Shown here one piece after another: positions 3,548-62,400 of a stretch of 64,000 nucleotides of DNA (position 1 is its first letter; the number at the start of each line of letters is the position of its first letter). The notes under the pieces were generated by a model, which did not search any database, was not told where the DNA came from, and worked only from the letters and a program-made list of their open reading frames with translations. Location of the stretch: assembly GCA_964524145.1 (NCBI GenBank), contig CAZGCA010000010.1, positions 13,807-77,806 on the forward strand. Direction: 5' to 3'. Origin of the DNA: an uncultured bacterium (GTDB lineage: Bacteria; Hydrogenedentota; CAZGCA01). The position numbers were made by a program, and so were the translations under genes.

Positions 3548-3752
3548 CTGGATATCCTAGCCCATTCTCTGGACACCGGCGTGCGTCTTGACCTTTGATC
3601 CGGTGCCTCCACCTAACAGTGTGCACGATTCGCAAAGGATTTATCAAGCCGGGTGTCAAAGAGAAAACGAAGAAACGTGTCGGCAGGTGCTGCCCGAAAA
3701 GAAGCAAAGCGTTCGTTTTAATGTAGAGTCTTCGGACGCATCGCGGCTGATC

Positions 3753-7042: not shown

Positions 7043-8484
7043 TCTTCACCTCGCCATACGATATCGCCGGACCTGAACTCATGTGTGCCGCCGTCGTCGA
7101 TCAGGTTCTGCCCGATGCTGTACAGAAGGAAGCCGTCGTCTGAAGGTTGGTACAGGTACGGATTGCCGGTAAACGGGTCGACGGGCAGCGAACCGCCGAA
7201 TTCCGGGGCAATGGCATCCAGGCTTTCCGGATACGATCCGGTGCGCGCATGGTGTTGTTCCACGAGAATGCCCATTTGCATCAGGTCGAGTATGGCTTCG
7301 TGCCGTGCCTGCGACTCGTACGCGCGCATCAAGCCAGGTATCAGCCTGTCCGAGAGAACCCGCGTGGGCGCCAAGCTCGAAAAATCCATCTCTATCTGAT
7401 TCATCTCGGGTGCAGCCTCGTAATACGGTTGCTCGGCAGCCGAACAGAGTCGGCCTATGAGGTCGGCGTACGCTGCCTCGTCCATGTTCAGCCAGGGCCT
7501 TCCCAACGGACTCCTGTAGAAGTCTCGGATCAATTCATCGATCGTGTCTGGAGCTCCAGCTCCAAGGTAGAACGCCAAATCAAACGCATCCCGTTTGGCG
7601 GGGTTAGGTTCACGGAGACCGGAGAAGATCTGGAGGCCCATATGCAGTTCTCCGGCCAACGAATCGGCGAAGGCACGCCGGTCGCGCCCCCGGGCGATCT
7701 GCATCATGAGCCGGCGGGTCTGTTCCGGTGAAAGGTCCGCGCCCTCGAGCGAAACCTGCAGCCCACTGCTTAGGATGCCGTTCATCGCTATCCGCACGAA
7801 CTGGCTGATAAGCACAGGTTCCTGCTTCAACGCCTCGCCCAGTTTCATCCCGGCAATAACGTCCTCGAACGCCTCGGTCTTGTTCCCTTCCATCGCCTTG
7901 ATGATTGCGTCGGCACGAAGCAGTCTGGCGCACTCACGCATTGGAGCGAGATGCGGCAGGTCCATCGCCAACCCTTTCGAGAAATCGAGCGGATAGACGG
8001 GGCCGCCGCGCTCGGAAAGCTGCCGGATTTCGCGTACCACATCCTGGTTTTCGGCCAGCAATTCGGCAACCTGTTGCCGCGTTTCGTCACTCCAGTCATG
8101 CCACCGTTGTGGAACATCCTGCCAGGGAACGTCGCTGGCTCGTAGCGGCTTCAACGTCGTAAAGAGAAGCTGATCGTACCCTTCCATGATCTCCATCGCG
8201 TCTTCCGGAAACCCCTCGAATGGCGAGGTTCTTTGTTGCCCGGCATCGTCTGCGCTCTCCTCGGTGAAAACGCTCCAGTCGCCGGAAAGCTCAGCGTAGA
8301 GCCTCTCGTACGCGTCTATCGTTGCGGGCTTCCGAACGTTCGCAAGCTTCGAAGCGAGGTTCTTTTCCGTGACAAGCACAAATGAGACGCAGGCCGCGAT
8401 AACGAATCCTGCCACGGCGGCAAGTATGAGTACCGGCCGTCCAACGGACCGCTGCGTTCCACGTGTTGCTCTGTCGTCTTTCAC
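7039..8484 (-). CDS. GspG-like C-terminal domain protein, paralog 3
   Basis: Conserved blocks ADRGGPVYPLDFSKG...LAGELHMGLQIFSGLR and a C-terminus PVDPFTGNPYLYQPSDDGFLLYSIGQNLIDDGG. There is a 4-nt overlap with the flanking paralogs. Confidence 0.6.
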   Translation of the reverse strand: MKDDRATRGTQRSVGRPVLILAAVAGFVIAACVSFVLVTEKNLASKLANVRKPATIDAYERLYAELSGDWSVFTEESADDAGQQRTSPFEGFPEDAMEIMEGYDQLLFTTLKPLRASDVPWQDVPQRWHDWSDETRQQVAELLAENQDVVREIRQLSERGGPVYPLDFSKGLAMDLPHLAPMRECARLLRADAIIKAMEGNKTEAFEDVIAGMKLGEALKQEPVLISQFVRIAMNGILSSGLQVSLEGADLSPEQTRRLMMQIARGRDRRAFADSLAGELHMGLQIFSGLREPNPAKRDAFDLAFYLGAGAPDTIDELIRDFYRSPLGRPWLNMDEAAYADLIGRLCSAAEQPYYEAAPEMNQIEMDFSSLAPTRVLSDRLIPGLMRAYESQARHEAILDLMQMGILVEQHHARTGSYPESLDAIAPEFGGSLPVDPFTGNPYLYQPSDDGFLLYSIGQNLIDDGGTHEFRSGDIVWRGEE

Positions 8485-9818: not shown

Positions 9819-10015
9819 CGTGCGCCTCCAACACTCCGTTCGGGAAGGACGTCCAGGACGCTTCTGTCACTAGGATTATACGCCCCCCAACGCTGAACGT
9901 TCAAAGGAATGACGCAGGTGTCGCGCAACGAAATGACACCGTCCGGGTGGCACAGGCTTCCAGCCTGTGTCTGAAGTCTGGGCTTGTCCATCCAATCGGC
10001 CAGACCAGACTCCCT

Positions 10016-10119
10016 GAAGCGGAGCAATTTGCATGGCCACCTCCCGTTCGTATGGTTCTTGGGCAAGATGCCCAAGCCACGGGGAAGATGCTCCCCGAAG
10101 GGGAGCAATTTGAATAGCC
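10016..10119. promoter_or_regulatory. Divergent intergenic region with two 23-bp direct repeats flanking an 8-bp perfect palindrome
   Basis: gaagcggagcaatttgcatggcc (10016-10038) and gaaggggagcaatttgaatagcc (10097-10119) are direct repeats. cttgggca-aga-tgcccaag (10057-10075) lies between them. The region sits between the paralog operon (minus) and the DUF2851 gene (plus). Confidence 0.3.
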
Positions 10120-10294
10120 GCAGGTGTAACCTGTGGAAACGATGCGAACAAGAGTATCAACCCTGAAAGGGTTGAACGTGGAAACCGCAAAGCGCGGATC
10201 GAAACGTCCGATCACACGGTTGATCGTCGTGCCGTGCCGTGGTAGCATGTGGTGGAAGAAACCGGTTTGGCAGAACGCTTATTGGGGAGGTGGG

Positions 10295-11851
10295 ATGGCG
10301 AGGGAGACGCCCGCACGGTTCTCGGACGCGTACCCGCACACGGTACGCCGCACGTTCCTTGTGAGGGAAGCCCCGACCGCTCGCGAGACGGGTCAGAGAC
10401 GGAATCTTCCCGAGAAGATCGTAAGCTGCCTCTGGTACGAGGGAAGGTTCAGCGGCCACGAGCTTGTCTGCGACGACGGGACGAAAGCCGAGGTGGTGTC
10501 GCCGGGCTGGTGGAACCTCGAGGGAGGACCGGATTTCCACGATGCCCAGATACGGTTCGTCACGCCGGGCGGCTCGCGACTGGTGACGGGCGACGTCGAG
10601 ATACATCTCACGGCAGGCGACTGGCGCGCTCACGGCCATCATACCGACCCGCGCTACGACAACGTGGCACTGATCGCGACGCTCTACGAGCCGCGACGCG
10701 TTCCGGCAGCGAAGAACAGCAAAGGCGACCGGCTGCGGCAGGTCTTTCTCGAAAAACAGTTTCTCGACCTGGTCAGGCGCGAGGCACGGCGTATCGATCC
10801 CGACGACTACCCGTATTCGCGGCCCGACAACGTCGGCCACTGCTGCTTGACGCTCGCGCAGTCCGGCACGGAACGTATCAAGCAGGTGCTCGATCTCGCG
10901 GGCGACTGGCGTATGGTGGCGAAATCCGAATCGTTTGCCGAGATGATAGCCGGCGACGGTCTCGACCAGACCTATTACGCGGGGATAATGCGGGCGCTCG
11001 GGTACAAAAGCTTCAAACGGGAGTTCGGTGAGCTTGCGTCGCGGGCGCCGTACGCGCTCCTTCGCGAACTTGGCCGTTCCGCCGGTGTCGCCGCCGATCC
11101 GGTGCTGACCATCCAATCCATTCTGTTCGGTGTGGCGGGTCTGACACCGAAACGCCTGAAAACGGAAAAGGACGATCTCCAGCTCGCCAGGCATGTTAGG
11201 GATATCCGGTCGAGCTGGCGTCAGCTGAAGAAGTACTTCTCCGACGCGGACAGTATGGACAGGGCTGCATGGTCCGGACGAGCCGTGAGGCCCGCAAACA
11301 CGCCCGCGAGACGTATTGCGGGCGCTGCGCACCTCCTTGCCCGGTTCGGTGACGTCGGCATCTCGCAGAAGATTATCGAGACCGTTCGCTCTTCCACCAA
11401 CAAACGCGGAGGCACGAAGGCGTTGCAGGACCTGTTCACGGTAGACGCGCCGGGCGATTACTGGACGTCGCACAGCAAGTGGGGCGGCGCGAGGCTCGGT
11501 CGTCCGCTGAAGCTCATCGGAAAGAGCCGCGCGCTCGCGATCATCGTCAACGCGGTAGTTCCTGCGACCCTTGCTCACGCCCGCCGGTCGAAGGACAGGG
11601 AACTCGAAACGAAGCTCTTTGAACTATACTCGGGGCTGCCGCGACTGCCTGCGAATTCCGTGACCCGGCTCATGACGCACAGGATATTCGGCATGCAGAC
11701 GAAATCGTCAGAAGATCCCGCCGCCTGCGATACAAGGAAGGTACTCTGCAACGCGCGTCGCGAACAGGGTCTCATCCAGCTGTTTAACGATTGGTGCTCG
11801 CAAAACCCCACCTGCGCGAACTGCGCCGTTCTGCCGTTGCTCTCAAACTGA
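10295..11851 (+). CDS. DUF2851-family protein
   Basis: CLWYEGRF...LVCDDGTKAEVVSPGWWNLEGGPDFHDAQIRF...GDVEIHLTAGDWRAHGHHTDPRYDNVALIATL follows the DUF2851 pattern (DG..V.V.PG..N...GPDF.A.I....GDVEIH...SDW..H.H..D..YDNV). The likely start is ATG 10295, preceded by GGGGAGGTGGG. The antisense ORF 10157..11578 is spurious. Confidence 0.6.
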   Translation: MARETPARFSDAYPHTVRRTFLVREAPTARETGQRRNLPEKIVSCLWYEGRFSGHELVCDDGTKAEVVSPGWWNLEGGPDFHDAQIRFVTPGGSRLVTGDVEIHLTAGDWRAHGHHTDPRYDNVALIATLYEPRRVPAAKNSKGDRLRQVFLEKQFLDLVRREARRIDPDDYPYSRPDNVGHCCLTLAQSGTERIKQVLDLAGDWRMVAKSESFAEMIAGDGLDQTYYAGIMRALGYKSFKREFGELASRAPYALLRELGRSAGVAADPVLTIQSILFGVAGLTPKRLKTEKDDLQLARHVRDIRSSWRQLKKYFSDADSMDRAAWSGRAVRPANTPARRIAGAAHLLARFGDVGISQKIIETVRSSTNKRGGTKALQDLFTVDAPGDYWTSHSKWGGARLGRPLKLIGKSRALAIIVNAVVPATLAHARRSKDRELETKLFELYSGLPRLPANSVTRLMTHRIFGMQTKSSEDPAACDTRKVLCNARREQGLIQLFNDWCSQNPTCANCAVLPLLSN

Positions 11852-35129: not shown

Positions 35130-35440
35130 AAGCCATAACGACACCGCGAAGTCCCGCAGGGACGGTTGAGAATAGCCCAGGGGTTCACTGTGGTCGAAGC
35201 TATAACGACACGCCGAAGTCCCGCAGGGACGGTTGAGAATAGCCCAGGAGTTCACTCCTGGGAATCGGTATGATGCAACGGCCTTCAGTCCCGTAGGGAC
35301 GGCTGAACCCATTTCTTGAGGTCAAAGTCTTTCAGCCGTCCCTCCGGGACTCGATATGTTGAGGGAACGCCGGTGAACCGCAGGAATAAATTCCTGGGCT
35401 ATTGTCGTTCGTCCCTGCGGGACTCTGCAAAAACGTTCCG
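35130..35440. repeat. Cluster of direct and inverted repeats built on the palindromic core gtcccgcagggac
   Basis: The unit ataacgacacNgcgaagtcccgcagggacggttgagaatagcccagg occurs at 35130-35176 and 35196-35243. Degenerate direct copies (cagtcccgtagggacggctgaa) and inverted copies (agccgtccctccgggactcg; cctgggctattgtcgttcgtccctgcgggact) follow. It is intergenic, upstream of comM. Confidence 0.7.
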
Positions 35441-51541: not shown

Positions 51542-52612
51542 CTAGTCCTGGAAATTCACCTCGCGCTCGGCGGGCGGCGCCAATGCCGGGAGGTTTTCAT
51601 TGACGCCCCGTTGGTACCAGAACGCACAGCTTGCGTAGTCATTGGCCTTGTCGTTGCCGTGGCCGTGCTCGAGCGTCACGCGGATTGACTTGCGGAACCG
51701 CAGGGGGTCGGCCAGGTAGAAGCGGTACATGGCGTTCGTGCCCCACCACCGATAGCCGGCACGGTTCTCGACGCAATGGAACCCGGTATACGGCCCCGTG
51801 TATTCCACGTCCGGGCCCGCGCCACCGCCGAAAATCTCCTCCGTTCCCGTGCCGTGAATCGAGGGCGGGAATTCTTCGCCGTCAATGAAGACCATGTCGT
51901 CGCCCTCGCCATACCAATCACGTTCGTGGTTGACGACCGTCAGGAAATATCCCGCGAACTGCCCGTCGCCTGCGACGTCGAGGATGACATAGTTGTCGTC
52001 GCCGCTGAGGTTCTTGATCTCGTCCTGTCCTTCGGGCAGCGCGACGGCCTCCGTACAGCGTTCCCGGTTCCACCGGGCGTGGAGCCTGCCGGCGTTGTCG
52101 GGGACGGCCGCGGGCGCGTCGTACAACTCGTAGTCAATGTGGTACCAACAGCCGGAGCCCAACTCATCGCTCTGGTTCTCGAGTTCGATGCGGGCGCCGC
52201 TGGTGAACGGCATAGGCAAGTAGCAGTTGAATCCCCACGACGAAACGACCTGACGGTCACAGCCTGGATTGATGGTGAAAGCCAGCGATTGTATTGGCCT
52301 CACCCGCCCATTGCAGACGCCAAAGAAATCCCCGAACGGCACTTCGATACTCGGCCTCTCCGACCCGTCCCAGAAGGCCCGCAGCACCACGTTCCGGAAC
52401 AGGTTCATGCGCAGGTTTTCCTGCGGCATGATGTAGGTCCAATAGAAATGCTTGATGCAACCGGCCCCCTTCTCCTCCATCAACACCTTCGTCTCGCCGG
52501 GACCGAACTCGATCCAATCCCGGTTCCCTCCCGTACGGTCCCAGCTCGATGCGCGCTTACTCCGATAGTCGTGTAACAGACACGCTTGCGACAGAATCCC
52601 GTTCGATACCAT
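51542..52612 (-). CDS. DUF2961 / GH172-like protein
   Basis: SWDRTGGNRDWIEFGPGETKVLMEEKGAGCIKHFYWT matches the DUF2961 N-terminal pattern (S.D.TGGN.D). The internal start MVSNGIL is at 52612. Confidence 0.55.
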   Translation of the reverse strand: MVSNGILSQACLLHDYRSKRASSWDRTGGNRDWIEFGPGETKVLMEEKGAGCIKHFYWTYIMPQENLRMNLFRNVVLRAFWDGSERPSIEVPFGDFFGVCNGRVRPIQSLAFTINPGCDRQVVSSWGFNCYLPMPFTSGARIELENQSDELGSGCWYHIDYELYDAPAAVPDNAGRLHARWNRERCTEAVALPEGQDEIKNLSGDDNYVILDVAGDGQFAGYFLTVVNHERDWYGEGDDMVFIDGEEFPPSIHGTGTEEIFGGGAGPDVEYTGPYTGFHCVENRAGYRWWGTNAMYRFYLADPLRFRKSIRVTLEHGHGNDKANDYASCAFWYQRGVNENLPALAPPAEREVNFQD

Positions 52613-52689
52613 GGGTGATTCTCCTTTCCTGCCAGGGTCTCCGGCCCAGAACTCACGACCCGCCAAGCATATCATGTACGGCTCCGAGA

Positions 52690-53312
52690 TTCACCTGTAC
52701 GTCTTCAGACTGTTTGCTGTTGAAGTGAACGGGACTCTCCAGGTCATCGTCAACGCGAGCAAACGAGTTCGAAGCTACGACGCCGAGACGGGCGACCTGA
52801 TCTGGGAGTGCGGGGGACAGACGATCAATGCCATTCCGTCGCCGGTCAGCGGTTTCGGAAACGTATTCTGCACCAGCGGTTATCGGGGCAGCGCATTGCA
52901 GGCCATCGAATTGGGCCGCACGGGCGACCTGACGCGCACCGATGCCATTAGCTGGGAGGTGAAAGAGGCCACCCCCTATACACCTTCCCCGCGGCTCTAC
53001 GGCGACAAGATCTATGTCTGTGCGGTCAACAAGGCCGTCATTTCGTGCTACCAGGCCGAGACGGGCAAGGCCAACTTCGTGAAACAGCGGCTCGAAGGGA
53101 TGAAGGAGATCTATGCATCACCCGTCGGGGCAGCCGACCGCGTGTATTTCGTCGGCCGGGACGGTAAGGCTACAGTCATCAAACGGTCAGAGAAAGTCGA
53201 AGTGCTGGCCACGAACACCCTCGACGATGAGATTGACGCCTCCCCCGCCGTCGCGGGCAATGAACTGTTTCTGAAAGGCAGAACCTACCTCTATTGCATC
53301 GCCGGTTCGTAA
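52690..53312 (+). pseudogene. 5'-truncated PQQ-like beta-propeller (BamB-like) gene: 3' blades only
   Basis: ORF 52611..53312 encodes propeller blades (VNASKRVRSYDAETGDLIWE...IYVCAVNKAVISCYQAETGK...VYFVGRDGKATVI...NELFLKG) without a signal peptide or N-terminal blades. Its 5' end runs into the convergent DUF2961 gene. Confidence 0.45.
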
Positions 53313-53335
53313 AGGAGATCGGCCTTTTACTTCTG
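53064..53335. repeat. Direct repeat copy 1: the 3' end of the PQQ-propeller gene
   Basis: About 270 bp repeated at roughly 90 % identity at 54846..55120. ORF 54862..55095 re-encodes MKQRLEGMKEIFASPVGAAGRVYFVGRDG...LFLKGKTYLYCIA. Confidence 0.85.
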
Positions 53336-53503
53336 GAATAGACGTGGTCGCCGGCTGGACCCACCCGTGGATCAACGGTGGCCCATGCTCATTGACCGCC
53401 ATGCGTCGTTTAAGCCAGCGTTGTCATCTGTTGATGCCTGTGCCGCTGCACGTAGAGACGAATTAAGTGTGATGTCCCCTGAATCACTGTTGCAGCTGGC
53501 CAA

Positions 53504-54682
53504 TCAAATGAGCCTGTTGCTAATCAGAAAGCTCCTACCTTTCTGGTGAATGCCGTACAAAGGCGGGCGCCCCCTGCCGTGGCTAGTATGGATATAGTCT
53601 TGCTCCTGAAGCGATCTTAAGTGGTAGCGAGTTACTAGCACAGAGAATCCCGTTGAGTGCGATATCTCGGAATCCTCCATCCGCTCTCGACCGGACTCTT
53701 CTGCCGCTGCAAGTAGCTTAAGAATCTTGACCTTTTCTTCCTCCAACCCACCTACCTGAGTCGTCTGCTCTGGAGGCGGTTCTTTGTAGGCAACTTGACC
53801 GATAATATCTCTTAACGATGCGAAGACTCCGTCGCCTGTTTCCCAAAACTCCCCATACGACTTACCGCCATCTACATAAAGCTGATGATCTTTTAGCCTT
53901 TTCAGGTTGGAGATCTGAGTCTCTATACCCTGCAGCACGGGTTGATCTGCAACGCCTTCCAGATTTGCGCCGAAATCGATGAGGTCTGATGTAAGCCGTT
54001 TTAATATGTACTTGGCGTCGTCAATACTAACAGGTTTGCTATCACGTTCGGTCGTCCAATCCACTTCAGCTCGTGTGACAAGAGCCTGCAGCTGTTGCTT
54101 CACGGAATCAACTGAACGAAGATCCTCATCGATACCTATAGTAACAAACGAGGGCTCGCCATGGAGTTGTCGGACTACCCTTGTTAGATGTCTAAGGAGC
54201 TTTTCCCTCAGACCAGAAACTGAATCATATTTATCAGGAAGACCCGCAGCCTGGCATTTCTCTTTAAAATCGGTAAGGAGCTTATATTGCTCGCGATCGA
54301 CACTGTCAAGCGCTACGGGAACTGATGAAAAATACAACAATACTGGTTTCCCTGCTTTCTCCATTTCCTGGATTTCTTCAACGGTACCCGACTCTGCGAC
54401 GCCGGTGTGAGTCCCTATTCTTGTCCAGAACGCGCCCACCAGCATGTCACAAGCGCCGACGAGTTGTTTGTTTATAATGGCCTGTGGCCTGTCTCCCAAT
54501 TCCGGAGTGGAATGAGTCTCCCACATAACCGGCATAAGCACTACGCCGTAGTCTTCTGAGTGAGTAGCATTCCACGCGCTGACAACTTCGGGTATCGCTT
54601 TCCGCTCAGCGATCACATCGCTGGGAGAAGCAATTAGGATTCTGTAAACTGTCGCTTCATATGCCATTTCTTGTTTTCCCAA
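53504..54682 (-). CDS. Protein with an N-terminal DUF4062-like (TIR/SLOG-like Rossmannoid) domain; cargo of the repeat-flanked insertion
   Basis: YRILIASPSDVIAERKAIPEVVSAWNATHSEDYGVVLMPVMWETHSTPELGDRPQAIINKQLVGACDMLVGAFWTRIGTHTGVAESGTVEEIQEMEKAGKPVLLYFSS matches the DUF4062 pattern (VFISSTF.DL.EER..V.E.I...G..PV.ME.F.A......I..CD..I.I.G.RYG). This segment is lower in GC than its flanks. Confidence 0.5.
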   Translation of the reverse strand: MGKQEMAYEATVYRILIASPSDVIAERKAIPEVVSAWNATHSEDYGVVLMPVMWETHSTPELGDRPQAIINKQLVGACDMLVGAFWTRIGTHTGVAESGTVEEIQEMEKAGKPVLLYFSSVPVALDSVDREQYKLLTDFKEKCQAAGLPDKYDSVSGLREKLLRHLTRVVRQLHGEPSFVTIGIDEDLRSVDSVKQQLQALVTRAEVDWTTERDSKPVSIDDAKYILKRLTSDLIDFGANLEGVADQPVLQGIETQISNLKRLKDHQLYVDGGKSYGEFWETGDGVFASLRDIIGQVAYKEPPPEQTTQVGGLEEEKVKILKLLAAAEESGRERMEDSEISHSTGFSVLVTRYHLRSLQEQDYIHTSHGRGRPPLYGIHQKGRSFLISNRLI

Positions 54683-54845: not shown

Positions 54846-55120
54846 AGGCAAGGCCAACTTCGTGAAGCAACGGCTCGAAGGGATGAAGGAGATCTTCGCA
54901 TCACCCGTCGGGGCAGCCGGCCGCGTGTATTTCGTCGGCCGGGACGGTACGACTGCGGTCATCAAACGGTCGGAGACGTTCGAACTGCTGGCCACCAACA
55001 CCCTCGACGATGAAATCGACGCCTCCCCCGCCATCGTGGGCGATGAACTGTTTCTGAAAGGCAAGACCTACCTCTATTGCATCGCCGACGTCTAAAGGAG
55101 CAATGCCGTTTACTTTTCGA
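54846..55120. repeat. Direct repeat copy 2: the displaced duplicate of the PQQ-propeller gene 3' end
   Basis: See 53064..53335. Confidence 0.85.
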
Positions 55121-55938
55121 CCATAGGTGGTCCCTTTACCGTGATTCTCCCAGGTGCCTGTCTCCTGTTTTTCTCATCGCACCTTCAGATCAAGGGAAAT
55201 AGGTGTGGTGTCCCTGCGAAGGGAGATGCCTACCAGGTCAAAAAGTGTTCACCTGCCAGCGATTATTGGAGTGACAAGCAGAACAGGGTCAGGGAGTGGG
55301 AGAGCCATGTGCCCGAGTTGTGCCTGAGACGCGACAACTCGGATGGTCTTTCGCATGTGAAGGACAGCGCAGCACAGAACCCTCCGCAACCCTCTAGACG
55401 TTTCCTACCTCTCCGGCAGGCGCAGCCCTAAGGCTGACGCTTCGAACGGCACGGCGAAGCCGAACGCTACCACTTTGTTTAGAATATGGATTCTCACAAA
55501 TATAAATCAATCCCACGATATGAAAGAAGTTTTGTGCACCCTCTCAGCTCCCTTAGGTTTCCCCCTTCCCGGACTCTACCCCCTTCCCGTGAGGCCTGAA
55601 ACAGCGCGCCCAATCTTGATGGGGTCAAGCTTGTGAATCGTGCGCTGATCCTGCAGGCTCGTTCCTTGTCCCAGGCGAAACTCGCCCGCTCCCTTTAGTG
55701 ACCTAGACAATTTGAGATTGGCCCATCTCCGAGCATGCGGTCGTCGTGCGGTCGTCGTGCGTGAGTTTGTCCACGGCGCTTTTGCATGCTCCCCTCTCGT
55801 TGCCGGCCTGCCGTGAAAACCGTTAGACGGCCACGGGCCTCGGCAGCTTCCGCTTGCGCGCACCTGACCACACTGCCCAGCGTGGCCCGTACCCCTGAAT
55901 CTTGTATCAGGATAAGAAGACGGAGAGCACCGGTTAAT

Positions 55939-56223
55939 AGAGGTCAACTGCTGCAGCCGCTACGGACTCAAGGCCGTCAAAAGTCCAGGGTGACGCCGGG
56001 AATTCGCTTGACGTAACTGGTAAGGGAGGCGTATCATTTGGTCAGAGGGATGCAAAGAGGACAATGGTCTATGCTCGTACGCGCAGTCGAGGTGTGCGCA
56101 GCCCTTTAGACGGGTTATGAGGGGATGAGTTACGCGTGTTGCACGGCAAAATCGCCAAATAGAGGTGTTACACGGAAACCATGTAACACGTAGTTAGCTC
56201 AAGATGGAAAGGAGGTAAGGCGA
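55939..56223. repeat. Duplicated roughly 300-bp upstream regulatory region, copy 1, with an operator-like palindrome
   Basis: ctgcagccgctacggactcaaggccgtcaaaagtccagggtgacgccgggaattcgcttgacgtaactggtaagggaggcgta...ggtgttacacggaaaccatgtaacacgtagttag is homologous to 57684..58022. The palindrome gtgttaca-N9-tgtaacac sits at 56165-56190. Confidence 0.75.
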
Positions 56224-56553
56224 ATGACGAAGCAAGCGAAGATACTGATTGGAGTTGGGCTCTTGGTGCTGACGCTAGTTCTTGGTTTCTTCGCGTACCG
56301 CGCACAAGCGAAGTACAATCAGGCTATCGGGCGCACCGTAAGCGTAGCATCAGGTCAGACGGGGCCGATCACTGACAACACGCTGGTCCAGGTCCAGCTT
56401 TTTGGTCCACAGCGGAGGGAAGAAGACGCAGCAAAGAACAACCGCAATATGCTGGTAGTTGTCACTGTGCTTGCAGGAGTAGGAGCTGTTCTGTTCATCA
56501 TCCTAGGCATCGCCAGTAAGGGCGCAGTTCCACAGCCGGGAAAGGAGGGCTAA
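56224..56553 (+). CDS. Small membrane protein (two transmembrane segments), unknown function
   Basis: MTKQAKILIGVGLLVLTLVLGFFAY...LVVVTVLAGVGAVLFIILGIA. GGAAAGGAGG precedes the ATG. Confidence 0.4.
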   Translation: MTKQAKILIGVGLLVLTLVLGFFAYRAQAKYNQAIGRTVSVASGQTGPITDNTLVQVQLFGPQRREEDAAKNNRNMLVVVTVLAGVGAVLFIILGIASKGAVPQPGKEG

Positions 56554-56641
56554 CTCCCCGTAGAGCACGGCTGTCAAGGCCGCATGCCAAGCGCAGCCCT
56601 TGGCAGCGGCTTAGCCGGCTCGTTAGGGTAGGAAGCTTACA

Positions 56642-57613
56642 ATGCCAGTCTGCAAACGCTGCAACGAAAAAGTGGGCCTTCTTGCGTCCCTCAAAGCGCA
56701 CTGTGGATTATGTGAGGCGCGCCGTCAGAAAGCGAGCGAACTAGCGAACACCTATGAAGAGCGAGGGGCAACAGCATGCATCGATGAATTGGTGGATGTC
56801 GCCCGCAATTTAATTAGAGTCGCGCCCTGGCACTCGGCTTCCGGTGATGATATGGAACCAGTTGTTAACAGTCTTATCTGCGTCGGGCGTTTGGACGAAG
56901 CGCGTGAGCTTGTCCGGCGAGAGATGAAGATTGAGAGGTGCGAACGTGCGTTCCTAGCCTATGATGCCGTCGAGCGTCCGGAGGTCCTCACAGAAAAGCT
57001 CCTGCATGATTTTCCTCCAGACGAGGACTTTGACCCGTTCCGTTTGTTCCGTTTGGCCAGGGCTTTCGTAGTACTCGCATACTTCGAAATAGCATCCGAC
57101 AACGTGCTCGATCGTAAGGGACTCGTGCGTTGGTCTCAGGAGAGAGCTGCCGAGCTTGGGTATGCGCCGTACGCTGAAGACATTAGCAACCGGGTGAAGA
57201 ATCTATGGACGCAGTACCCCGCGTTATTGTGCGACGCTTGTCAACGGTTCGGCCATCTCCATAATGCAGAGGAGATGTTGGCCCGGGCATTGGAAGACGC
57301 CGGCCCTTTGCCAGATCACCAAGCGAACTGCTGCCGCTGCCTGACTCTCATTGGCATGGGGCGACTAAGCGAAGCACAGGATATTCTCGCAAGACACGAA
57401 CTTTCGTATCACACAGCGCGCGTAACTGCACTTCTGGCCAACGCATATCTGCAAAAGCAAGACACAGTCGGCGCTTTTTGGACCGCGCTGGGGATAGGTA
57501 ATGAGTTCTTCTCGAGCGGTATCTTGCGCTTTGCGCCGCACTTGGTGCGTGAGGCCAGCAAGGTGGCTTCGTTCTTTGCTTTGAACACGCTACTGCGTGA
57601 TTGGTGGGTATGA
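56642..57613 (+). CDS. Hypothetical protein with an N-terminal zinc-ribbon-like CxxC...CxxC
   Basis: MPVCKRCNEKVGLLASLKAHCGLCE. The rest is helical and uncharacterised. Confidence 0.4.
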   Translation: MPVCKRCNEKVGLLASLKAHCGLCEARRQKASELANTYEERGATACIDELVDVARNLIRVAPWHSASGDDMEPVVNSLICVGRLDEARELVRREMKIERCERAFLAYDAVERPEVLTEKLLHDFPPDEDFDPFRLFRLARAFVVLAYFEIASDNVLDRKGLVRWSQERAAELGYAPYAEDISNRVKNLWTQYPALLCDACQRFGHLHNAEEMLARALEDAGPLPDHQANCCRCLTLIGMGRLSEAQDILARHELSYHTARVTALLANAYLQKQDTVGAFWTALGIGNEFFSSGILRFAPHLVREASKVASFFALNTLLRDWWV

Positions 57614-57683
57614 AAACCAATCGGGGTACGCCCTGACAAGCGCATGCACGCACCTGTCCACGCTGCCAAGCATGGAAGCGAAC

Positions 57684-58022
57684 TGCTGTAGCCGCTGCGA
57701 ACGCAAGGCCGTCAAAAGTCCAGGGTGATGCCGGGAATCCGCTTGACGTAACTGGTACGAGAGGCGTACCATTCGGTCAGAGGGATGCAAGGAGCACAGT
57801 GGTGCATGCTCGTGCGCTCAATGGCGGTGGTCGAAGTGTGCGGAGCTCCGTTGACGCGTCATGAGGGGATCGGTTACGCGTGTTACGTAGAAACTATGTA
57901 AGACGCGTGGTAAATGGTGAGGGAGCTGTAATCCCCTCTCTTGAAATGGGTTTTGCAGGTCGCGTTTGTACGTGTTACCCGGAAACCATGTAACACGTAG
58001 TTAGGCCTAAAAATCCGTAAAG
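57684..58022. repeat. Duplicated upstream regulatory region, copy 2
   Basis: See 55939..56223. The palindrome cgtgttacccggaaaccatgtaacacg is at 57971-57997. A second partial palindrome ttacgcgtgttacgtagaaactatgtaagacgcgtggtaa lies upstream. Confidence 0.75.
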
Positions 58023-58484
58023 ATGGAGACCGGTGGCGACATGGAATTTTCAAAATTGCTCCGGGGTCTAAAACGCAAGATCTCCTGCCCTTTTTGCGGT
58101 GGCAAGAGGTCAGTCTACGTTGCCGGGAAGTGCCCGCGTTGTGGGTTCAACTTGCTGTGTCCGATTTGCGCTCGCCCCTTCGAGTTCGATTGGGGAATGA
58201 CACGCGTTGCCAACATGTTCGTTCGAGGGAAGACACTTCAGTGCCGTGACTGCGATCTCTACATCGGGATCGACTCGTACAGAGGTACGGCTGATGTCGA
58301 TTCCTTGTGCTTTTGCCCAAAATGTCGGGACTCACTCCTTCGGTGGCAGGATCTCCGCAAGTCGCGTGATCCGTTCTCACGGCAGCAGCCGTTTTCTGCG
58401 GTGCCAAAAACGGAACTGATTCACGGTACGCTCGTGTGCGAGAAATGTGATTTCACATGGTCCAAGGACATGCCGAAAGACTAA
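58023..58484 (+). CDS. Multi-zinc-ribbon small protein
   Basis: Repeated CPxCG/CxxC pairs: CPFCGGK...CPRCGF...CPICAR...CRDCD...CFCPKCRD...CEKCDF. Confidence 0.4.
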   Translation: METGGDMEFSKLLRGLKRKISCPFCGGKRSVYVAGKCPRCGFNLLCPICARPFEFDWGMTRVANMFVRGKTLQCRDCDLYIGIDSYRGTADVDSLCFCPKCRDSLLRWQDLRKSRDPFSRQQPFSAVPKTELIHGTLVCEKCDFTWSKDMPKD

Positions 58485-59427
58485 CGGAACAAGAGCAGGA
58501 ATCAGCGAACAAGCCAGTCGAGCTGACCGCCAGAATTGCCAATGCTCTGTAAACCAGGGGACGTATGTAAAAACGCAAAAAACTCATCGTACTCCCAAAA
58601 GTTTGTCTTTTAAACGACTACTGTTGCTGAATAGAGGGTGTGCCTAACAAATCGCTGAAGCTGACGGCGGTTCCCGCCGCAGCTTAGCTCAGTCGTTATG
58701 CCCGATCCGTAATAGCACAAGAAGCATCCTCCTTCTCCAATACCCTAAAAAACTGACTTGCCAAACCCCTTCCATGGCAGGTAGCTATCAACCCGATCGG
58801 CCAAACCCACGAAAGTGCCGTGAATGTCTCTGTGGGATTGAGAATGACAGAGGAATCTGGTGTGCGAAATTCAAGAAGATTCCGAATCCAAGGGAGATCA
58901 AGCGCTGTCGCCACTTTTGCCCCAAGGTGATACTTAATGATGTCCAAATCGATAGCTAGACGCCCACACACGTCTTCACACTGAAGTCGGACACGCGAGG
59001 CTGTCCGGCTTTGTCTTAACACCAAAAGGAGGTATTCCATGAGAGGAACTATTGACCAGATTTGGGAGAACGAGAGCCGTAACGGCCAGAAATACCTTGC
59101 GGTACAGATAGATGGAGAGCGATATAGCGCATGGGACACAGAGTACTTCGAACTAATTCAAGAGGCGCAATTAGGGGGACACCACAGTCATTGCACTGCG
59201 TTTTCGGTGTTCTGTCCCCCGAGTTCGAACCGCGTAGCTCCGGCCTGACTTCGCTTCATACAGTTTCCGCCGGCTTTCTTGGTCGGAGCCCCCACGTCCC
59301 CCTAACGACACGGCAGACTATATTCCTTTAGCGTACGCCTTGCCAAGAGGAACTGTTTGGTGTCCTTCGTTCTTGGAATAAACGTGGTTTCACCCTGCTT
59401 GGGCTCACCGGACCGGGAAACCGCGGT

Positions 59428-62400
59428 TCATTCATGCCTCAATGCAGGCAGGGTGTCTTTCTCCAACGCTGCAAGTATCGAAACGGCCATGCATGCACCG
59501 CTGCACAACAGAACCAGAAACAGCAGTGCGAGCTGAAACGGAATGGAGACGTCCGAGCCGGCGGACAGTATGGCGGGCGCCATGGACACCGCGGCGGCTA
59601 TCACGCCGACTCCGATGCCGGCCAGGAGCAGAAGACCGTGTTCGGTAAACAGCATTCGTAGAACCGTGCGGCGTTGGTAGCCGAGAGCGTGCAGCACGGC
59701 GATCTCGCGTCGCCGCTCGAGAACGTTGCGCAATACGACGATGCCCATGCCCGCGCCGCCGAGCGTCAGGCCCAGTCCGCCGAGCACCAGAAACATGGCG
59801 AGATACGTGCTTTGGACAACGTAGAATTCGCGCAGGCGTTCCACCGCAGGCACCACGTCCAGTCCGTGACGCTCGTACACCTGTTTGAGTGTGTTTGCAG
59901 CGTCTTCGGCTCCCTCGGTAGCCGTATCGATGAGGAATATCCGGAAACCGCTTTCGGAAGGGTACAACCGCGCGAACGCTTCATCGGAGACCAGTATCGT
60001 TCCCTGGAAGACCGACAGCCGCATCGGTAGCTGTCCCACCAGCTTCACGGTCACCTCGTTCCCGGACTCGTCGCGATAGAGAAGAGTATCTCCGTCGTCG
60101 ACGCCCGTCTTCTTGCGCAATCCCCACATGGCGGTGTCCGCGTCGCCGACGAGCGCAGGCACGAGATCGCCCTCAAGCTCGAGGTCGAGCAGGGTCCACA
60201 GGTCCTCATCTCGATCGTGATGCATGAAGGCGCGAAGTTCTGAGAACGTGTCCGGGTTAACCCCGAGCACACGCGGGGTCCGGGCGTAATTGAGGTTGAG
60301 GCAGCTTGCATCATCGCCGTCGCGGACGCGAACGGGTACAACCTTGACGTCTTCATCGCCGAGTGCCGCGGCCGGATCATCTTGCAAGGGGACGGTCGCC
60401 TCGGCGTAGAGTTCGAATCCCCCGGTTCCCGACCATCGCTCGCCCGAATGGGCGGCGAGATCCTCTCTCATGGAGGATACGGAGAACACCAGGAAACACC
60501 CGCATGCAAGCAGGCCGGCCACGCTCAGGCTGCGGCCGCGCCGGCGCGCGACGTTCTGTATCGAGACACTTGTCACCGTGGGCTGTTTCGCGGACCGTTT
60601 GGACGCCTGGGCGATCAGAACAAAACGCCAGAAACCCAGTCCCGAGAGCAAGAGAAGGGATCCTACGCCGAAGAAAGGCAGCACAATGTTGCCGGGTTTC
60701 GTGGCGATGACAGCAATGGCGACAATGATTGCCGACACAAATCCGCATACCGGCAAAGCGAGCGAACGCAGGTACGGGACGCGGCGTTGCCCGGCCACAC
60801 GTTCTTCGAGCGTGAAGTCGGCAGAGAGCAGTTCCCGAGCAGTGTGGCGGGTTTGACGCCATGAAGCAACCGCCATCGTGACGATCGCGCAACAGCATCC
60901 TGCCGCCCCGCCCATAAGCGCCGTGCCGGGTTCCGCGTGGTAGCTGATCGCGGCATTCGCTATCGCGCCCTGCCAGAACCGGCCGAGACCGAAGATGAGC
61001 GCGCGTGTGTAGGCGGTTCCGGCCAGAACGCCGACGGCGGAGGCCAAGACCGCGACCGCGCCCGCTTCGGCCAATACGATCAGGCGGATCTGGCCGGGTC
61101 GGAATCCCAGGGCAAGCAACGTACCGAACTCTGCGGCGCGTTGCTGCAGGGTGAAGACGAACAGCAGACCGGTCAGAATCAGCGCCGCAATGATGAGGAA
61201 GAAGCTCATCCCGAGAAAGAGTCCGCCAAAATCCATGGCTTGCGACACGGCCTCGAGGGCCTGCTCGCGGACCGGCTGAAACGCTATACCCATCTTCCCG
61301 GGATCAATCTCGCGGGTGAGCACGTGCCGGATATCAGCAACACGGTCAGCGGCCGCGTCAAACCGCACCGCGGTCAGGCGACCGAACCGGTTGCCCCACA
61401 TCGACTGGCCCGCGTCGAGGCCGACGAACAGTTTCGGTGTTTGTCCGAACTGTTGCCAGTACGACTCGTTGTCCGGGTCTCTGAGGAGCGCTTCCTCCAT
61501 AGGCATGCCGATTTCCCAATCGCGGCACCTGTTGACGTTGCTCAAGCCGGGTAACACGGGCATGAGGTCGCGTTCGACGCGCAGGCGATCCATCTCGACG
61601 ACGCCTCGCACGGTGAACGTCCGCGCGGCCTCAACGAACTTGTTGTTGGCAAGGAGTTGGTAGTACGTCACACGGAGCCGGTCTCCCTCGCGGGCATCCA
61701 AGTGTTCGGCCAGCCACCGGTTGATGACGGTTTCGTCGTCACCCAACTCCCCGTATGCGCCTCCGGCCAGCGCAAACGAATAGGGTGTGGTCTTATCGCT
61801 TTTGGAGACGGTGTTCACAAGGTAGGCCAACGCACCACGAGCCCCGGGTATCGCGAGCGCGGCCCGGGCAGCTTCATCGTCCAGGAACACGCGATCAGAT
61901 TCGAGTTGGACGACGCCGGAGGAGTGCTCGCGCAGCCGCAGGCCGAGATGCTCCAGTTCCCAGCTTTTTCGAACCGCTTCCCCGAGCGCTTCCGGGGTCA
62001 CGTCCCCACGCGACACGAGTGTGTTGACGCGTCCTTCCATAGAAACCTGTTCCTGGAGCCAGCGCAGGCTGACAAACGCATTGTAAGGCGCGATCTGGCC
62101 GGCGGTCAGAGCGTATCGCCCCAGCCCGGTATCCGGTACGATCTGTTTCACGGTGCAGAGCGCACGGACAACGGGTTCATTCTCGCGCGAAGAGAGCGGG
62201 GCATCCCGCACCATGAGGTCGGGCCGGATGATGCGCAACGACATCTCGTCGCCCGGAGCGAGGCCAAGCGCCGCGGCAAGTTTCTCGTTGACCGCCACCT
62301 CATAGTCGGCAAGCTCGAGCGCGATATCGGGGCTGAAGTCCCAGAACCGGGAGTTGACGCCGAGCACCTGCACCTGGTTGATCTGTGTTGTCGAGCCACC

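Follow-up and report, generated by a model that had tools for sequence, protein, structure and literature searches.

Why do two unrelated small genes share the same upstream region? This question is raised by a 64-kb stretch of DNA from an uncultured bacterium of the Hydrogenedentota (GenBank assembly GCA_964524145.1, contig CAZGCA010000010.1, positions 13,807 to 77,806), hereafter called the window, in which a low-GC segment at approximately 55-59.5 kb contains two copies, A and B, of one repeated element. An earlier note, made from the letters alone, had described two homologous upstream regions of approximately 280 bp and had read a palindrome within them as the operator of a dimeric repressor. 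The results obtained herein lead to a more specific description than that note could reach: the observation is an integrase-less mini-array of the integron type, in which gene cassettes are docked behind a conserved module composed of a promoter-like site, hairpins and a core site. [quoted passage not shown] This description is carried by the homology of the copies, the anatomy of the cassettes, the exact junction between module and cassette, an insertion polymorphism in a homologue and the covariation of the hairpin.

First, the presence of two homologous regions upstream of unrelated small genes was borne out. A repeat search aligned 55937-56101 with 57672-57836 (165 nt, 84% identity), 56086-56140 with 57830-57884 (55 nt, 82%) and 56165-56197 with 57972-58004 (33 nt, 97%), and sensitive blastn of A against B gave 213 nt at 81% identity (E=1e-51) and 35 nt at 94%. 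Because blastn added a further upstream block (55851-55885 and 57641-57675, 83% identity), the duplicated element is a little longer than previously described: copy A covers 55851-56197 and copy B 57641-58004, a module of approximately 350 bp occurring twice in the window, with 81-94% identity by block. The copies differ by a 51-nt insert in A (55886-55936) and by a 9-nt insert and a middle section approximately 63 nt longer in B, and distances of 26 and 18 nt separate the end of their homology from the ATG codons at 56224 and 58023, respectively (position 58041 is an alternative start of the latter gene, chosen by some gene callers). Both copies are non-coding: their 27 mismatches are split 7/11/9 over the three codon positions and stops occur in all six frames of both, so that a protein-coding remnant or pseudogene was rejected. 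The lower GC content previously noted was likewise found, with values of 0.49-0.58 in the 55-59.5 kb segment versus 0.61-0.64 for the neighbouring sequence on the right (59.5-64 kb). The modules and their parts are the following.

55851-56193, + strand: module copy A, non-coding, recognised by homology to B and to metagenomic modules; it ends in G56193, the first base of the core site GTTAGCT.
56008-56037, + strand: sigma-70-like promoter of copy A (TTGACG, 18-nt spacer, TATCAT), predicted from 10 of 12 consensus matches.
56129-56135, + strand: GTTACGC, a core-site-like heptamer in direct orientation, identical in sequence to a direct-repeat integrase-binding site of attI1 (PMC3146285).
56165-56189, + strand: hairpin or inverted repeat GTGTTAC-ACGGAAACCAT-GTAACAC of copy A, the palindrome of the earlier note, with covariation over 12 homologous hairpins.
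56193-56199, + strand: core site GTTAGCT of copy A, with the junction at G56193/T56194.
57641-58000, + strand: module copy B, ending in G58000, the first base of the core site GTTAGGC (58000-58006).
57743-57772, + strand: sigma-70-like promoter of copy B (TTGACG, 18-nt spacer, TACCAT), predicted from 9 of 12 consensus matches.
57873-57906, + strand: GTTACGC followed by hairpin M1 (GCGTGTTAC-GTAGAAACTAT-GTAAGACGC) of copy B, recognised by sequence, folds and covariation.
57972-57996, + strand: hairpin M2 (GTGTTAC-CCGGAAACCAT-GTAACAC) of copy B, recognised by folds and covariation and followed by GTA and the core site GTTAGGC.

The promoter-like sites lie at equivalent relative positions in A and B and are predicted to be active as promoters. 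Approximately 150 nt upstream of the -35 hexamer are common only to A and B and include an invariant block of 24-25 nt, AAGGCCGTCAAAAGTCCAGGGTGA (55970-55993 and 57705-57728; the 24-mer occurs twice in the window). This block, located approximately 15-40 nt upstream of the -35 hexamer in both copies and absent from the modules of other lineages described below, could be an activator site or a UP-type site. Downstream of the promoter-like site, the arrangement GTGTTAC-N11-GTAACAC occurs exactly twice in the 64 kb, at the two positions listed, and in none of 100 shuffles. In 12 copies of the hairpin, 80.8% of the cells in 13 pairs are standard pairs and five pairs have changed on both sides; the observed covariation score was reached by none of 500 shuffles, and controls slid along the alignment collapse. 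Conservation across the hairpins extends to G-G and C-A mismatches and to the loop CGGAAACCA. Because the hairpin covaries while retaining its mismatches and loop, the palindrome has been selected as a folded or symmetric element and not merely inherited. Hairpin M1 of copy B has the conserved G-G mismatch as well, and one compensatory change from G-C to A-T in its inner stem. The second palindrome on acgcgtgttac that had been described in both copies is present in copy B (GCGTGTTAC-N11-GTAAGACGC, 57878-57906), and what copy A retains is a deletion remnant; since A joins two GCGT(G/C)TTACACGG repeats, it looks like a deletion derivative of the two-hairpin form found in copy B and in one metagenomic type (L111, below). 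A large structured RNA was considered and rejected: the folds of the single sequences are unremarkable (z=-0.27 for A and -2.7 for B), and the part upstream of the hairpin gave a weak consensus fold, whose covariation term is -1.3 kcal/mol. The covariance models of Rfam 15 gave no match up to E=10 in 55000-59500 and none up to E=1 in three homologous loci (L122, L099 and L106).

Second, the genes behind A and B are canonical integron gene cassettes. Both strands of the window were scanned for RYYYAAC...GTTRRRY pairs that fold as a hairpin, and fold z-scores were computed for the bottom strand as DNA against 200 shuffles. The array comprises the following units.

56194-56622, + strand: gene cassette 1 of 429 bp, with an open reading frame (ORF) of 109 aa and two transmembrane segments (56224-56553) and attC X (56548-56628).
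58001-58695, + strand: gene cassette 2 of 695 bp, with a 153-aa multi-zinc-ribbon ORF (58023-58484) and attC Y (58642-58701).
56642-57613, + strand: an ORFan of 323 aa with an N-terminal CxxC pair, taken from the ORF list and followed by module B rather than by an attC site.
58696-59250, + strand: array tail behind attC Y, with a 61-aa CxxC ORF (58774-58959) and a 69-aa ORF (59039-59248).
55141-55489, + strand: possible decayed cassette upstream of A, with a 96-aa ORF (55141-55431) and a degenerate attC-like hairpin at approximately 55424-55489 (GCCCTAAG...GTTTAGA).

The top-ranked attC-like hairpin of the window is attC X (GGCTAAC...GTTAGGG, 81 nt; z=-3.1), whose R'' box overlaps the stop codon of its ORF, and attC Y (GCCTAAC...GTTATGC, 60 nt; z=-4.25) is among the top sites; none of the 200 shuffles was as stable in either case. 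The layout of attC Y is that of a textbook site, in which an R box and unpaired spacers of 5 nt are combined with a bulged stem and a loop of 3 nt. Each site begins at or just past the stop codon of the ORF behind a repeat copy and has the R''/R' pair 3' of an ORF on the same strand and the imperfect bottom-strand hairpin expected of attC, within the length range of 57-141 nt known for such sites. Since X and Y are clustered on the same strand, 2.1 kb apart, and no integrase was found in the window, the segment falls under the definition of a CALIN, which asks for at least two clustered attC sites (PMC4889954). The 55.1-59.4 kb region, made up of ORFan genes, is an accessory, cassette-like segment with a common region upstream of two of its genes, as the earlier note had anticipated; the repressor operator of that note is unsupported. 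Both cassette proteins (109 and 153 aa) are ORFans, and their homologues as a route to related loci gave nothing. The 323-aa ORF begins 19 nt past the G/TTAGGG junction of attC X; its protein has a weak match to TPR_19 in Pfam, and its sole database match is the identical protein itself.

The remaining parts of the array are less regular. No attC site was recognised in 58696-59250, where the C-terminal part of the 69-aa ORF looks disrupted. The degenerate hairpin at approximately 55424-55489 has a fold z of -2.9 and is 73% similar to attC X over the latter's 3' half (E=0.7), so that 55141-55489 is weakly indicated as a possible decayed cassette. The junction behind attC X reads GTTAGGG (56622-56628), and the only CCCTAAC, the expected R'' partner, in the next 2.9 kb is at 59300-59306; this region is attC-like by eye and folds no better than shuffles, and the CCCTAAC match might be due to chance (approximately 0.2) or be the trace of an older, larger cassette. 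A candidate attC site there, at 59296-59386, was rejected, as its fold (z=-0.12) is no better than that of shuffles, and the region is homologous to a promoter repeat of the metagenomic locus L008.

Third, module and cassette meet at the exact position expected of site-specific recombination. If a cassette was inserted as a circle, the upstream G together with the first six nucleotides of the cassette must complement the R'' box of its own attC site. This complementarity is 7/7 behind copy B (GTTAGGC versus GCCTAAC of attC Y), 6/7 behind copy A (GTTAGCT versus GGCTAAC of attC X) and 7/7 for the cassettes behind homologous modules in L122, L111 and L099. Because this test holds, each repeat copy ends in the G of an integrase crossover site. 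The 3' ends of A and B thus present a GTTRRRY core with the first cassette starting at G/TT, as in attI, the insertion polymorphism itself being seen in a homologue and not in the window. In addition, attI has been described as a simple site whose two 7-bp domains are inversely oriented, direct repeats being optional; GTTACGC is a direct repeat of attI1 (PMC3146285). Judged by sequence only, ATGTAAC-ACGTA-GTTAGGC in copy B forms such inversely oriented core-like heptamers with a 5-bp spacer, with direct GTGTTAC and GTTACGC upstream, and the right arm of the hairpin in copy A (ATGTAAC) would form an inverted simple site with GTTAGCT; the homologues read ATGTAAG in place of ATGTAAC, a weaker inverse match. 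An integrase might bind these heptamers of the module, including the GTTACGC at 56129-56135.

Fourth, homologous modules were found on Planctomycetota-like contigs of other metagenomes by scanning with a degenerate hairpin pattern; the loci fetched are designated by L-numbers (L008, L093, L099, L101, L106, L110, L111, L122, L124, L126, L128, etc.). A profile search with nhmmer gave E=1e-60 to 1e-79 for L093/L111, L101/L124, L122, L099 and L106, from which the profile itself was built, E=8e-43 for copy B, from which it was partly built, and a weaker E=7e-09 for L008/L110, the locus of the closest relative, whose sequences were outside the profile. The last 64 nt of copy A are approximately 85-91% identical to the metagenomic modules, and its homology to all of them ends at the core site. 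The homologues share one order, namely a promoter-like site, a conserved leader, one or two hairpins (GTGTTAC-ACGGAAACCAT-GTAAG..) and GTAGTTAG, after which the similarity stops exactly and unrelated genes begin within 15-30 nt. Promoter-like hexamers are present in every related module, those of the L008 type being a perfect TTGACA-18-TATAAT and those of the L111 type having a perfect TATAAT. A candidate leader peptide was not conserved in modules of the L111 type as read from the sequences. Six of the eight module types close with a conserved GTAGTTAG, and in all six a different cassette starts exactly there.

The clearest case is given by L111 and L122, which represent one locus. L111 reads module-G/TTAGGCAGG-methyltransferase, i.e. 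module-G/TTAGGCAGGCTGAGG...methyltransferase, whereas L122 reads module-G/TTAGATGCC...121-aa ORF...attC(ATCTAAC...G)/TTAGGCAGGCTGAGG...methyltransferase, so that 411 bp, consisting of the 121-aa ORF and a 61-nt attC site (ATCTAAC...GTTAGGC), lie between module and methyltransferase with GTTAG on both sides. The two loci are a natural before-and-after pair in which a clean cassette has been inserted or excised at the G/TT of the module. Two canonical cassettes stand behind the module in L099. The modules in L093, L111 and L124 sit in ordinary intergenic regions beside core genes, with one or two different cassettes each; at least three dispersed copies are present in the L093/L124 lineage, and at least two copies lie within 2 kb in the window.

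The methyltransferase of this pair (257 aa, SAM-dependent; L111 2708-3567) is followed by a 92-nt attC site (GCCTAAC...GTTAGGC). It has more than 4000 homologues and is 80-96% identical across many metagenomes; for some of the named homologues, the sources place the contigs in unrelated phyla and in an archaeon (Desulfobacterales, Eisenbacteria and Phycisphaerae, and an archaeon of the Methanosarcinaceae). Several homologues are located in long same-strand arrays (L126, L128, L132, L133 and L137 among the loci), some with BrnT/BrnA or MazE modules, and in L126 and L128 the gene starts at the same G/TTAGGCAG behind a different attC site. The methyltransferase gene is itself an integron cassette, and one that appears to travel widely.

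Several side observations were made at the same loci. In L124, at 3549-3608 behind a gene for a 118-aa membrane protein, a fossil attC site (TCCTAAG AAATC ... GAGCTCAGC GTCAGGC) has both core triplets mutated (AAC to AAG and GTT to GTC), and the module before the gene lacks the GTTAG end; gene and site look like a cassette that has become fixed where it stands. In L106 (3660-3780, - strand), three tandem units, each with a core-like site and a similar sequence of approximately 18 nt (GCGTTAGCCaaagggctaccccccc, GCGTTGAGAcaaggggctgcccccc and GGGTTGAGGcaaggggctgcagcccc), lie immediately upstream of the module and form an unusual local reiteration of the R' end of attC. As for the window, the same locus occurs in several metagenome assemblies, and the seven contigs compared are 99.9-100% identical and offer no useful strain variation. 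Exact 21-mer searches of genome and metagenome collections gave no match. A phage or plasmid origin received no blastn match, and three patterns found no match in viral contigs. Alignment by MAFFT of the variable-length attC sites of independent cassettes was not structurally consistent. A template and variable repeat pair of a diversity-generating retroelement was rejected, as the differences between A and B read in the alignment are not adenine-specific and the ORFs and domain hits around the repeat include no reverse transcriptase (RT) gene; a retron, or a group II intron in attC, was rejected likewise, with no RT gene among the ORFs and domain hits examined and no Rfam match on either strand.

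Herein, we propose that each copy is an attI-like, promoter-equipped acceptor of cassettes, i.e. an integron platform without its integrase gene, served by an integrase encoded elsewhere, an account to which we give somewhat better than an even chance. The sigma-70-type promoter in the module (56008-56037; 57743-57772) would start a transcript that crosses a leader of approximately 155-230 nt with one or two conserved hairpins and runs into whatever lies downstream. The end of the module would serve as the recombination simple site, with an inverted ATGTAAC, a 5-bp spacer and the core GTTAG(C/G)Y, and with direct GTTAC-type heptamers, including GTTACGC, upstream. An integron integrase encoded elsewhere would recombine the folded attC site of a circular cassette with this site, between G and TT, and promoterless cassettes would land directly behind a promoter and be expressed for that reason. 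A trans-acting IntI presumably exists in such cells.

Several points weigh against this proposal. The promoters are consensus matches, of which four were found in 4.5 kb versus 2.3 expected. The covarying stem points to a folded DNA or RNA element, and a hairpin is not known to be required by classical attI sites. Module B and the module of L106 lie inside arrays, downstream of other attC sites, where a gene-less cassette would be expected; the GTTAG end is missing from the related modules of L008/L110 and L124b; and all the relatives are short metagenome contigs. Moreover, adjacency to intI is a defining feature of attI, and it is missing here because no integrase was found: tblastn with IntI1 gave none in the 64-kb window, in the loci with modules or cassette arrays, in approximately 8 kb beyond the right end of the window or in approximately 140 fetched loci, including the contigs with methyltransferase homologues, and the Pfam lists of neighbouring genes contain none; on the left side, the contig looked up stops where the window does. 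The lone match in any locus (E=0.55) is at chance level and falls in an unrelated locus of the PQQ gene.

The dispersed copies bring to mind a "distributed integron" in Phycisphaerae-like bacteria, with one trans-acting IntI and several structured docking modules per genome, each holding one or two cassettes; we put this forward as a tentative extension that is rather less probable than its absence. The hairpin with its conserved mismatches would make the module of such a system a hybrid of a double-stranded attI and a folded attC, and the module itself may spread by recombination.

Among the other explanations, the one that survives best, although we regard it as unlikely, is that the module is a mobile, ORF-less integron cassette whose promoter switches on the cassettes behind it. 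Copy B would then be the 3' part of a cassette consisting of the 323-aa ORF and the module, with the hairpin region and GTTAGGC as an atypical or unusually long attC site. The position of module B agrees with this explanation, being formally that of a cassette, between G/TTAGGG of attC X and its own G/TTAGGC, as do the module of L106, approximately 220 nt downstream of a canonical attC site and upstream of the next cassette, and the possible decayed attC site that precedes module A. Outside the arrays, between core genes, the modules of L093b, L111 and L124b do not, and no G/TT boundary was found at the 5' end of the module. The hairpin stems covary, as attC stems do, and, on both strands, a single long hairpin with an R-box-like base, CCTAA/TTAGG, is formed by the L111 module over its 3' 167 nt. 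However, no R'' box of the RYYYAAC type is conserved among the modules, the homologous position reading CGGTTAC or GAGTTAC in the window, TCCTAAG in L111, TTCTGAG in L099 and L093b and TTCACGG in L106; the R box is unable to pair in folds of the window copies; and the length from any candidate R'' box, 165-330 nt, exceeds that of attC sites. Cassettes that contain no gene but show sense-strand promoter activity are documented in Vibrio and Treponema integrons (PMC11014356 and PMC6557892). Because the modules do not pass as attC sites and also lack an adjacent intI, we describe them as working like attI plus a cassette promoter (Pc), and not as a known class of attI.

A still less probable explanation is that A and B are an ordinary paralogous promoter and 5' leader of small accessory genes, hit by secondary-site (attG-type) insertion at a fortuitous GTT; the hairpin loop CGGAAACCA would then act in the RNA, in stability, processing or protein binding, and the landed cassettes would be kept because the resident promoter expresses them. 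With GGA in its loop, the hairpin resembles CsrA-type sites. The conservation of the leader from promoter to hairpin across lineages fits this explanation, as do the covariation of the hairpin with its loop sequence kept and the L008/L110 modules, which lack GTTAG and are followed by genes in which no attC site was noticed. The absence of an Rfam match and the weak consensus fold upstream of the hairpin speak against it. An integrase can insert cassettes outside att sites at GWT, where they are expressed near resident promoters, and both SALINs, in which one attC site stands without an integron integrase, and small CALINs are common (10.1101/2022.09.11.507474). Secondary insertion is possible for single events. 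It would be surprising, however, if five independent insertions had hit one and the same G when GWT is all that a site requires; GTAGTTAG is a conserved ending of six of the eight module types, with no native downstream sequence shared among paralogous modules; the junction lies within what reads as a full inverted simple site with GTTAC repeats; and the use of one G as the junction in every GTTAG-bearing module is left unexplained.

The explanation of the earlier note, which takes the palindrome for an operator through which a dimeric transcription factor co-regulates the two downstream genes, is very improbable: the near-perfect inverted repeat has arms of 7-10 bp with half-site centres approximately 18-21 bp (about two helical turns) apart, is 97% conserved between the copies and unique to them in the window, has symmetric arm changes that, counted here as covariation, are also expected of a palindromic operator, and lies 1.2 kb downstream of a gene with a C-terminal winged helix, but it is placed far downstream of the predicted promoter (approximately +125 to +225; more than 120 nt beyond the -10 hexamer), its loop is better conserved than parts of its arms, the G-G and C-A mismatches break its symmetry, the changes in its stem are compensatory, the core site follows its right arm, and the end of homology at G/TTAG, with cassettes starting there, is left unexplained. 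The only nearby helix-turn-helix (HTH) protein, of 392 aa, looks like a defence protein related to PDC-S60, and its gene is absent beside the modules in other loci. That note had let its proposal depend on the palindrome recurring and on the repeat not being part of a duplicated gene: the palindrome is absent elsewhere in the window, yet it is present in the homologous modules of other metagenomes, and the repeat is not a gene fragment.

The surroundings of the array include two further features.

53504-54682, - strand: gene of the 392-aa HTH protein, with an N-terminal match (E=1.7e-27) to PDC-S60, a candidate defence family, and a CasR/Csa3-like winged helix as its C-terminus.
59273-59351, - strand: third, truncated promoter/leader module of a related type, with TTGGCA-18-TATAGT at 59346-59317.

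The PQQ-repeat gene (52611-53312) lies upstream of the low-GC segment, and the closest relatives of its protein are in metagenome-assembled genomes of Phycisphaerae/Sedimentisphaerales. In this analysis the window was placed in the Planctomycetota. The last approximately 290 bp of this gene with its tail (53066-53360) are duplicated at 54849-55140 with approximately 90% identity, around the single gene for the 392-aa protein, which looks like a separate one-gene insertion with a long target duplication. At 59377, the tail recurs as a third, partial copy (ttcttggaataaacgtggt). The truncated module is homologous (76-83%) to the L008 repeats 7263-7346 and 9967-10050, where TTGACA-18-TATAAT precedes unrelated genes; antisense in orientation, it enters the truncated 69-aa ORF and looks like a remnant. 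In L008, the sequence downstream of the same PQQ gene has 2.3 tandem copies of a 206-nt unit with a diverged fourth copy 2.4 kb away (7601-8070 and 10240-10445), and a 109-nt repeat (7486-7594 and 10124-10232) at 92% identity. Repeats make the region behind the PQQ gene a hot spot in both genomes. A perfect inverted repeat of 11 bp, TGTGGTGTCCC and GGGACACCACA (55204-55214 and 59176-59186), near the ends of the low-GC segment is probably not meaningful, with approximately five chance matches expected in the region. Elsewhere in the window, divergent matches to the Acido-Lenti-1 RNA of Rfam were observed at 35217-35262 (- strand) and 35379-35424 (+ strand), with 51.9 and 37.5 bits against a gathering score of 37.

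The usual picture of an integron has a single integrase, a single attI and a single array, and the origin of CALINs and SALINs is debated between decayed integrons and insertion at secondary sites. If the proposed acceptor is real, promoter-carrying modules heading several mini-arrays would be a third answer, in which dedicated, ready-to-express docking sites are spread across the chromosome. It would also provide attI-like sequences for a phylum in which none have been described, a search handle for hot spots of cassette capture in metagenomes and a DNA substrate for integrase assays.

Compared with known systems, the module resembles the integron platform (Pc plus attI, e.g. attI1 of class 1) in that its predicted promoter reads into cassettes, its terminal site is GTTRRRY with crossover at G/TT, and new cassettes enter at this terminal core site, as seen between L111 and L122. 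In contrast to that platform, no intI is adjacent or present in the window, several copies exist, and a covarying hairpin with a conserved loop is included; moreover, attI1 is 65 bp long and the module approximately 350 bp. By sequence, inverse heptamers that would form a simple site, and direct GTTAC-type heptamers including GTTACGC, also recall attI1 (PMC3146285). As in CALINs and SALINs, at least two attC sites in the same orientation and ORFan cassettes occur with no nearby integrase (PMC4889954 and 10.1101/2022.09.11.507474). CALINs, however, are defined by attC sites only, whereas a conserved, promoter-bearing element heads several mini-arrays here, an element that finds no mention in the passages of the literature consulted. 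Like the gene-less cassettes of Vibrio and Treponema, the module is a non-coding unit in an array with a predicted sense-strand promoter able to drive downstream cassettes (PMC11014356 and PMC6557892); unlike these cassettes, which end in a normal attC site, it has no conserved R'' box or R-box pairing and occurs outside arrays, beside core genes, in L093, L111 and L124. Insertion at attG sites likewise places cassettes outside classical att sites, where they are expressed from resident promoters (10.1101/2022.09.11.507474), but such sites share only GWT and no conserved elements, whereas one conserved site is used repeatedly in the paralogous modules. Finally, class 1 integrons contain genes with a downstream copy of attI instead of attC that are proficient in recombination, the delta-attI-type cassettes (PMC12901181), and the 323-aa ORF with module B resembles these cassettes.

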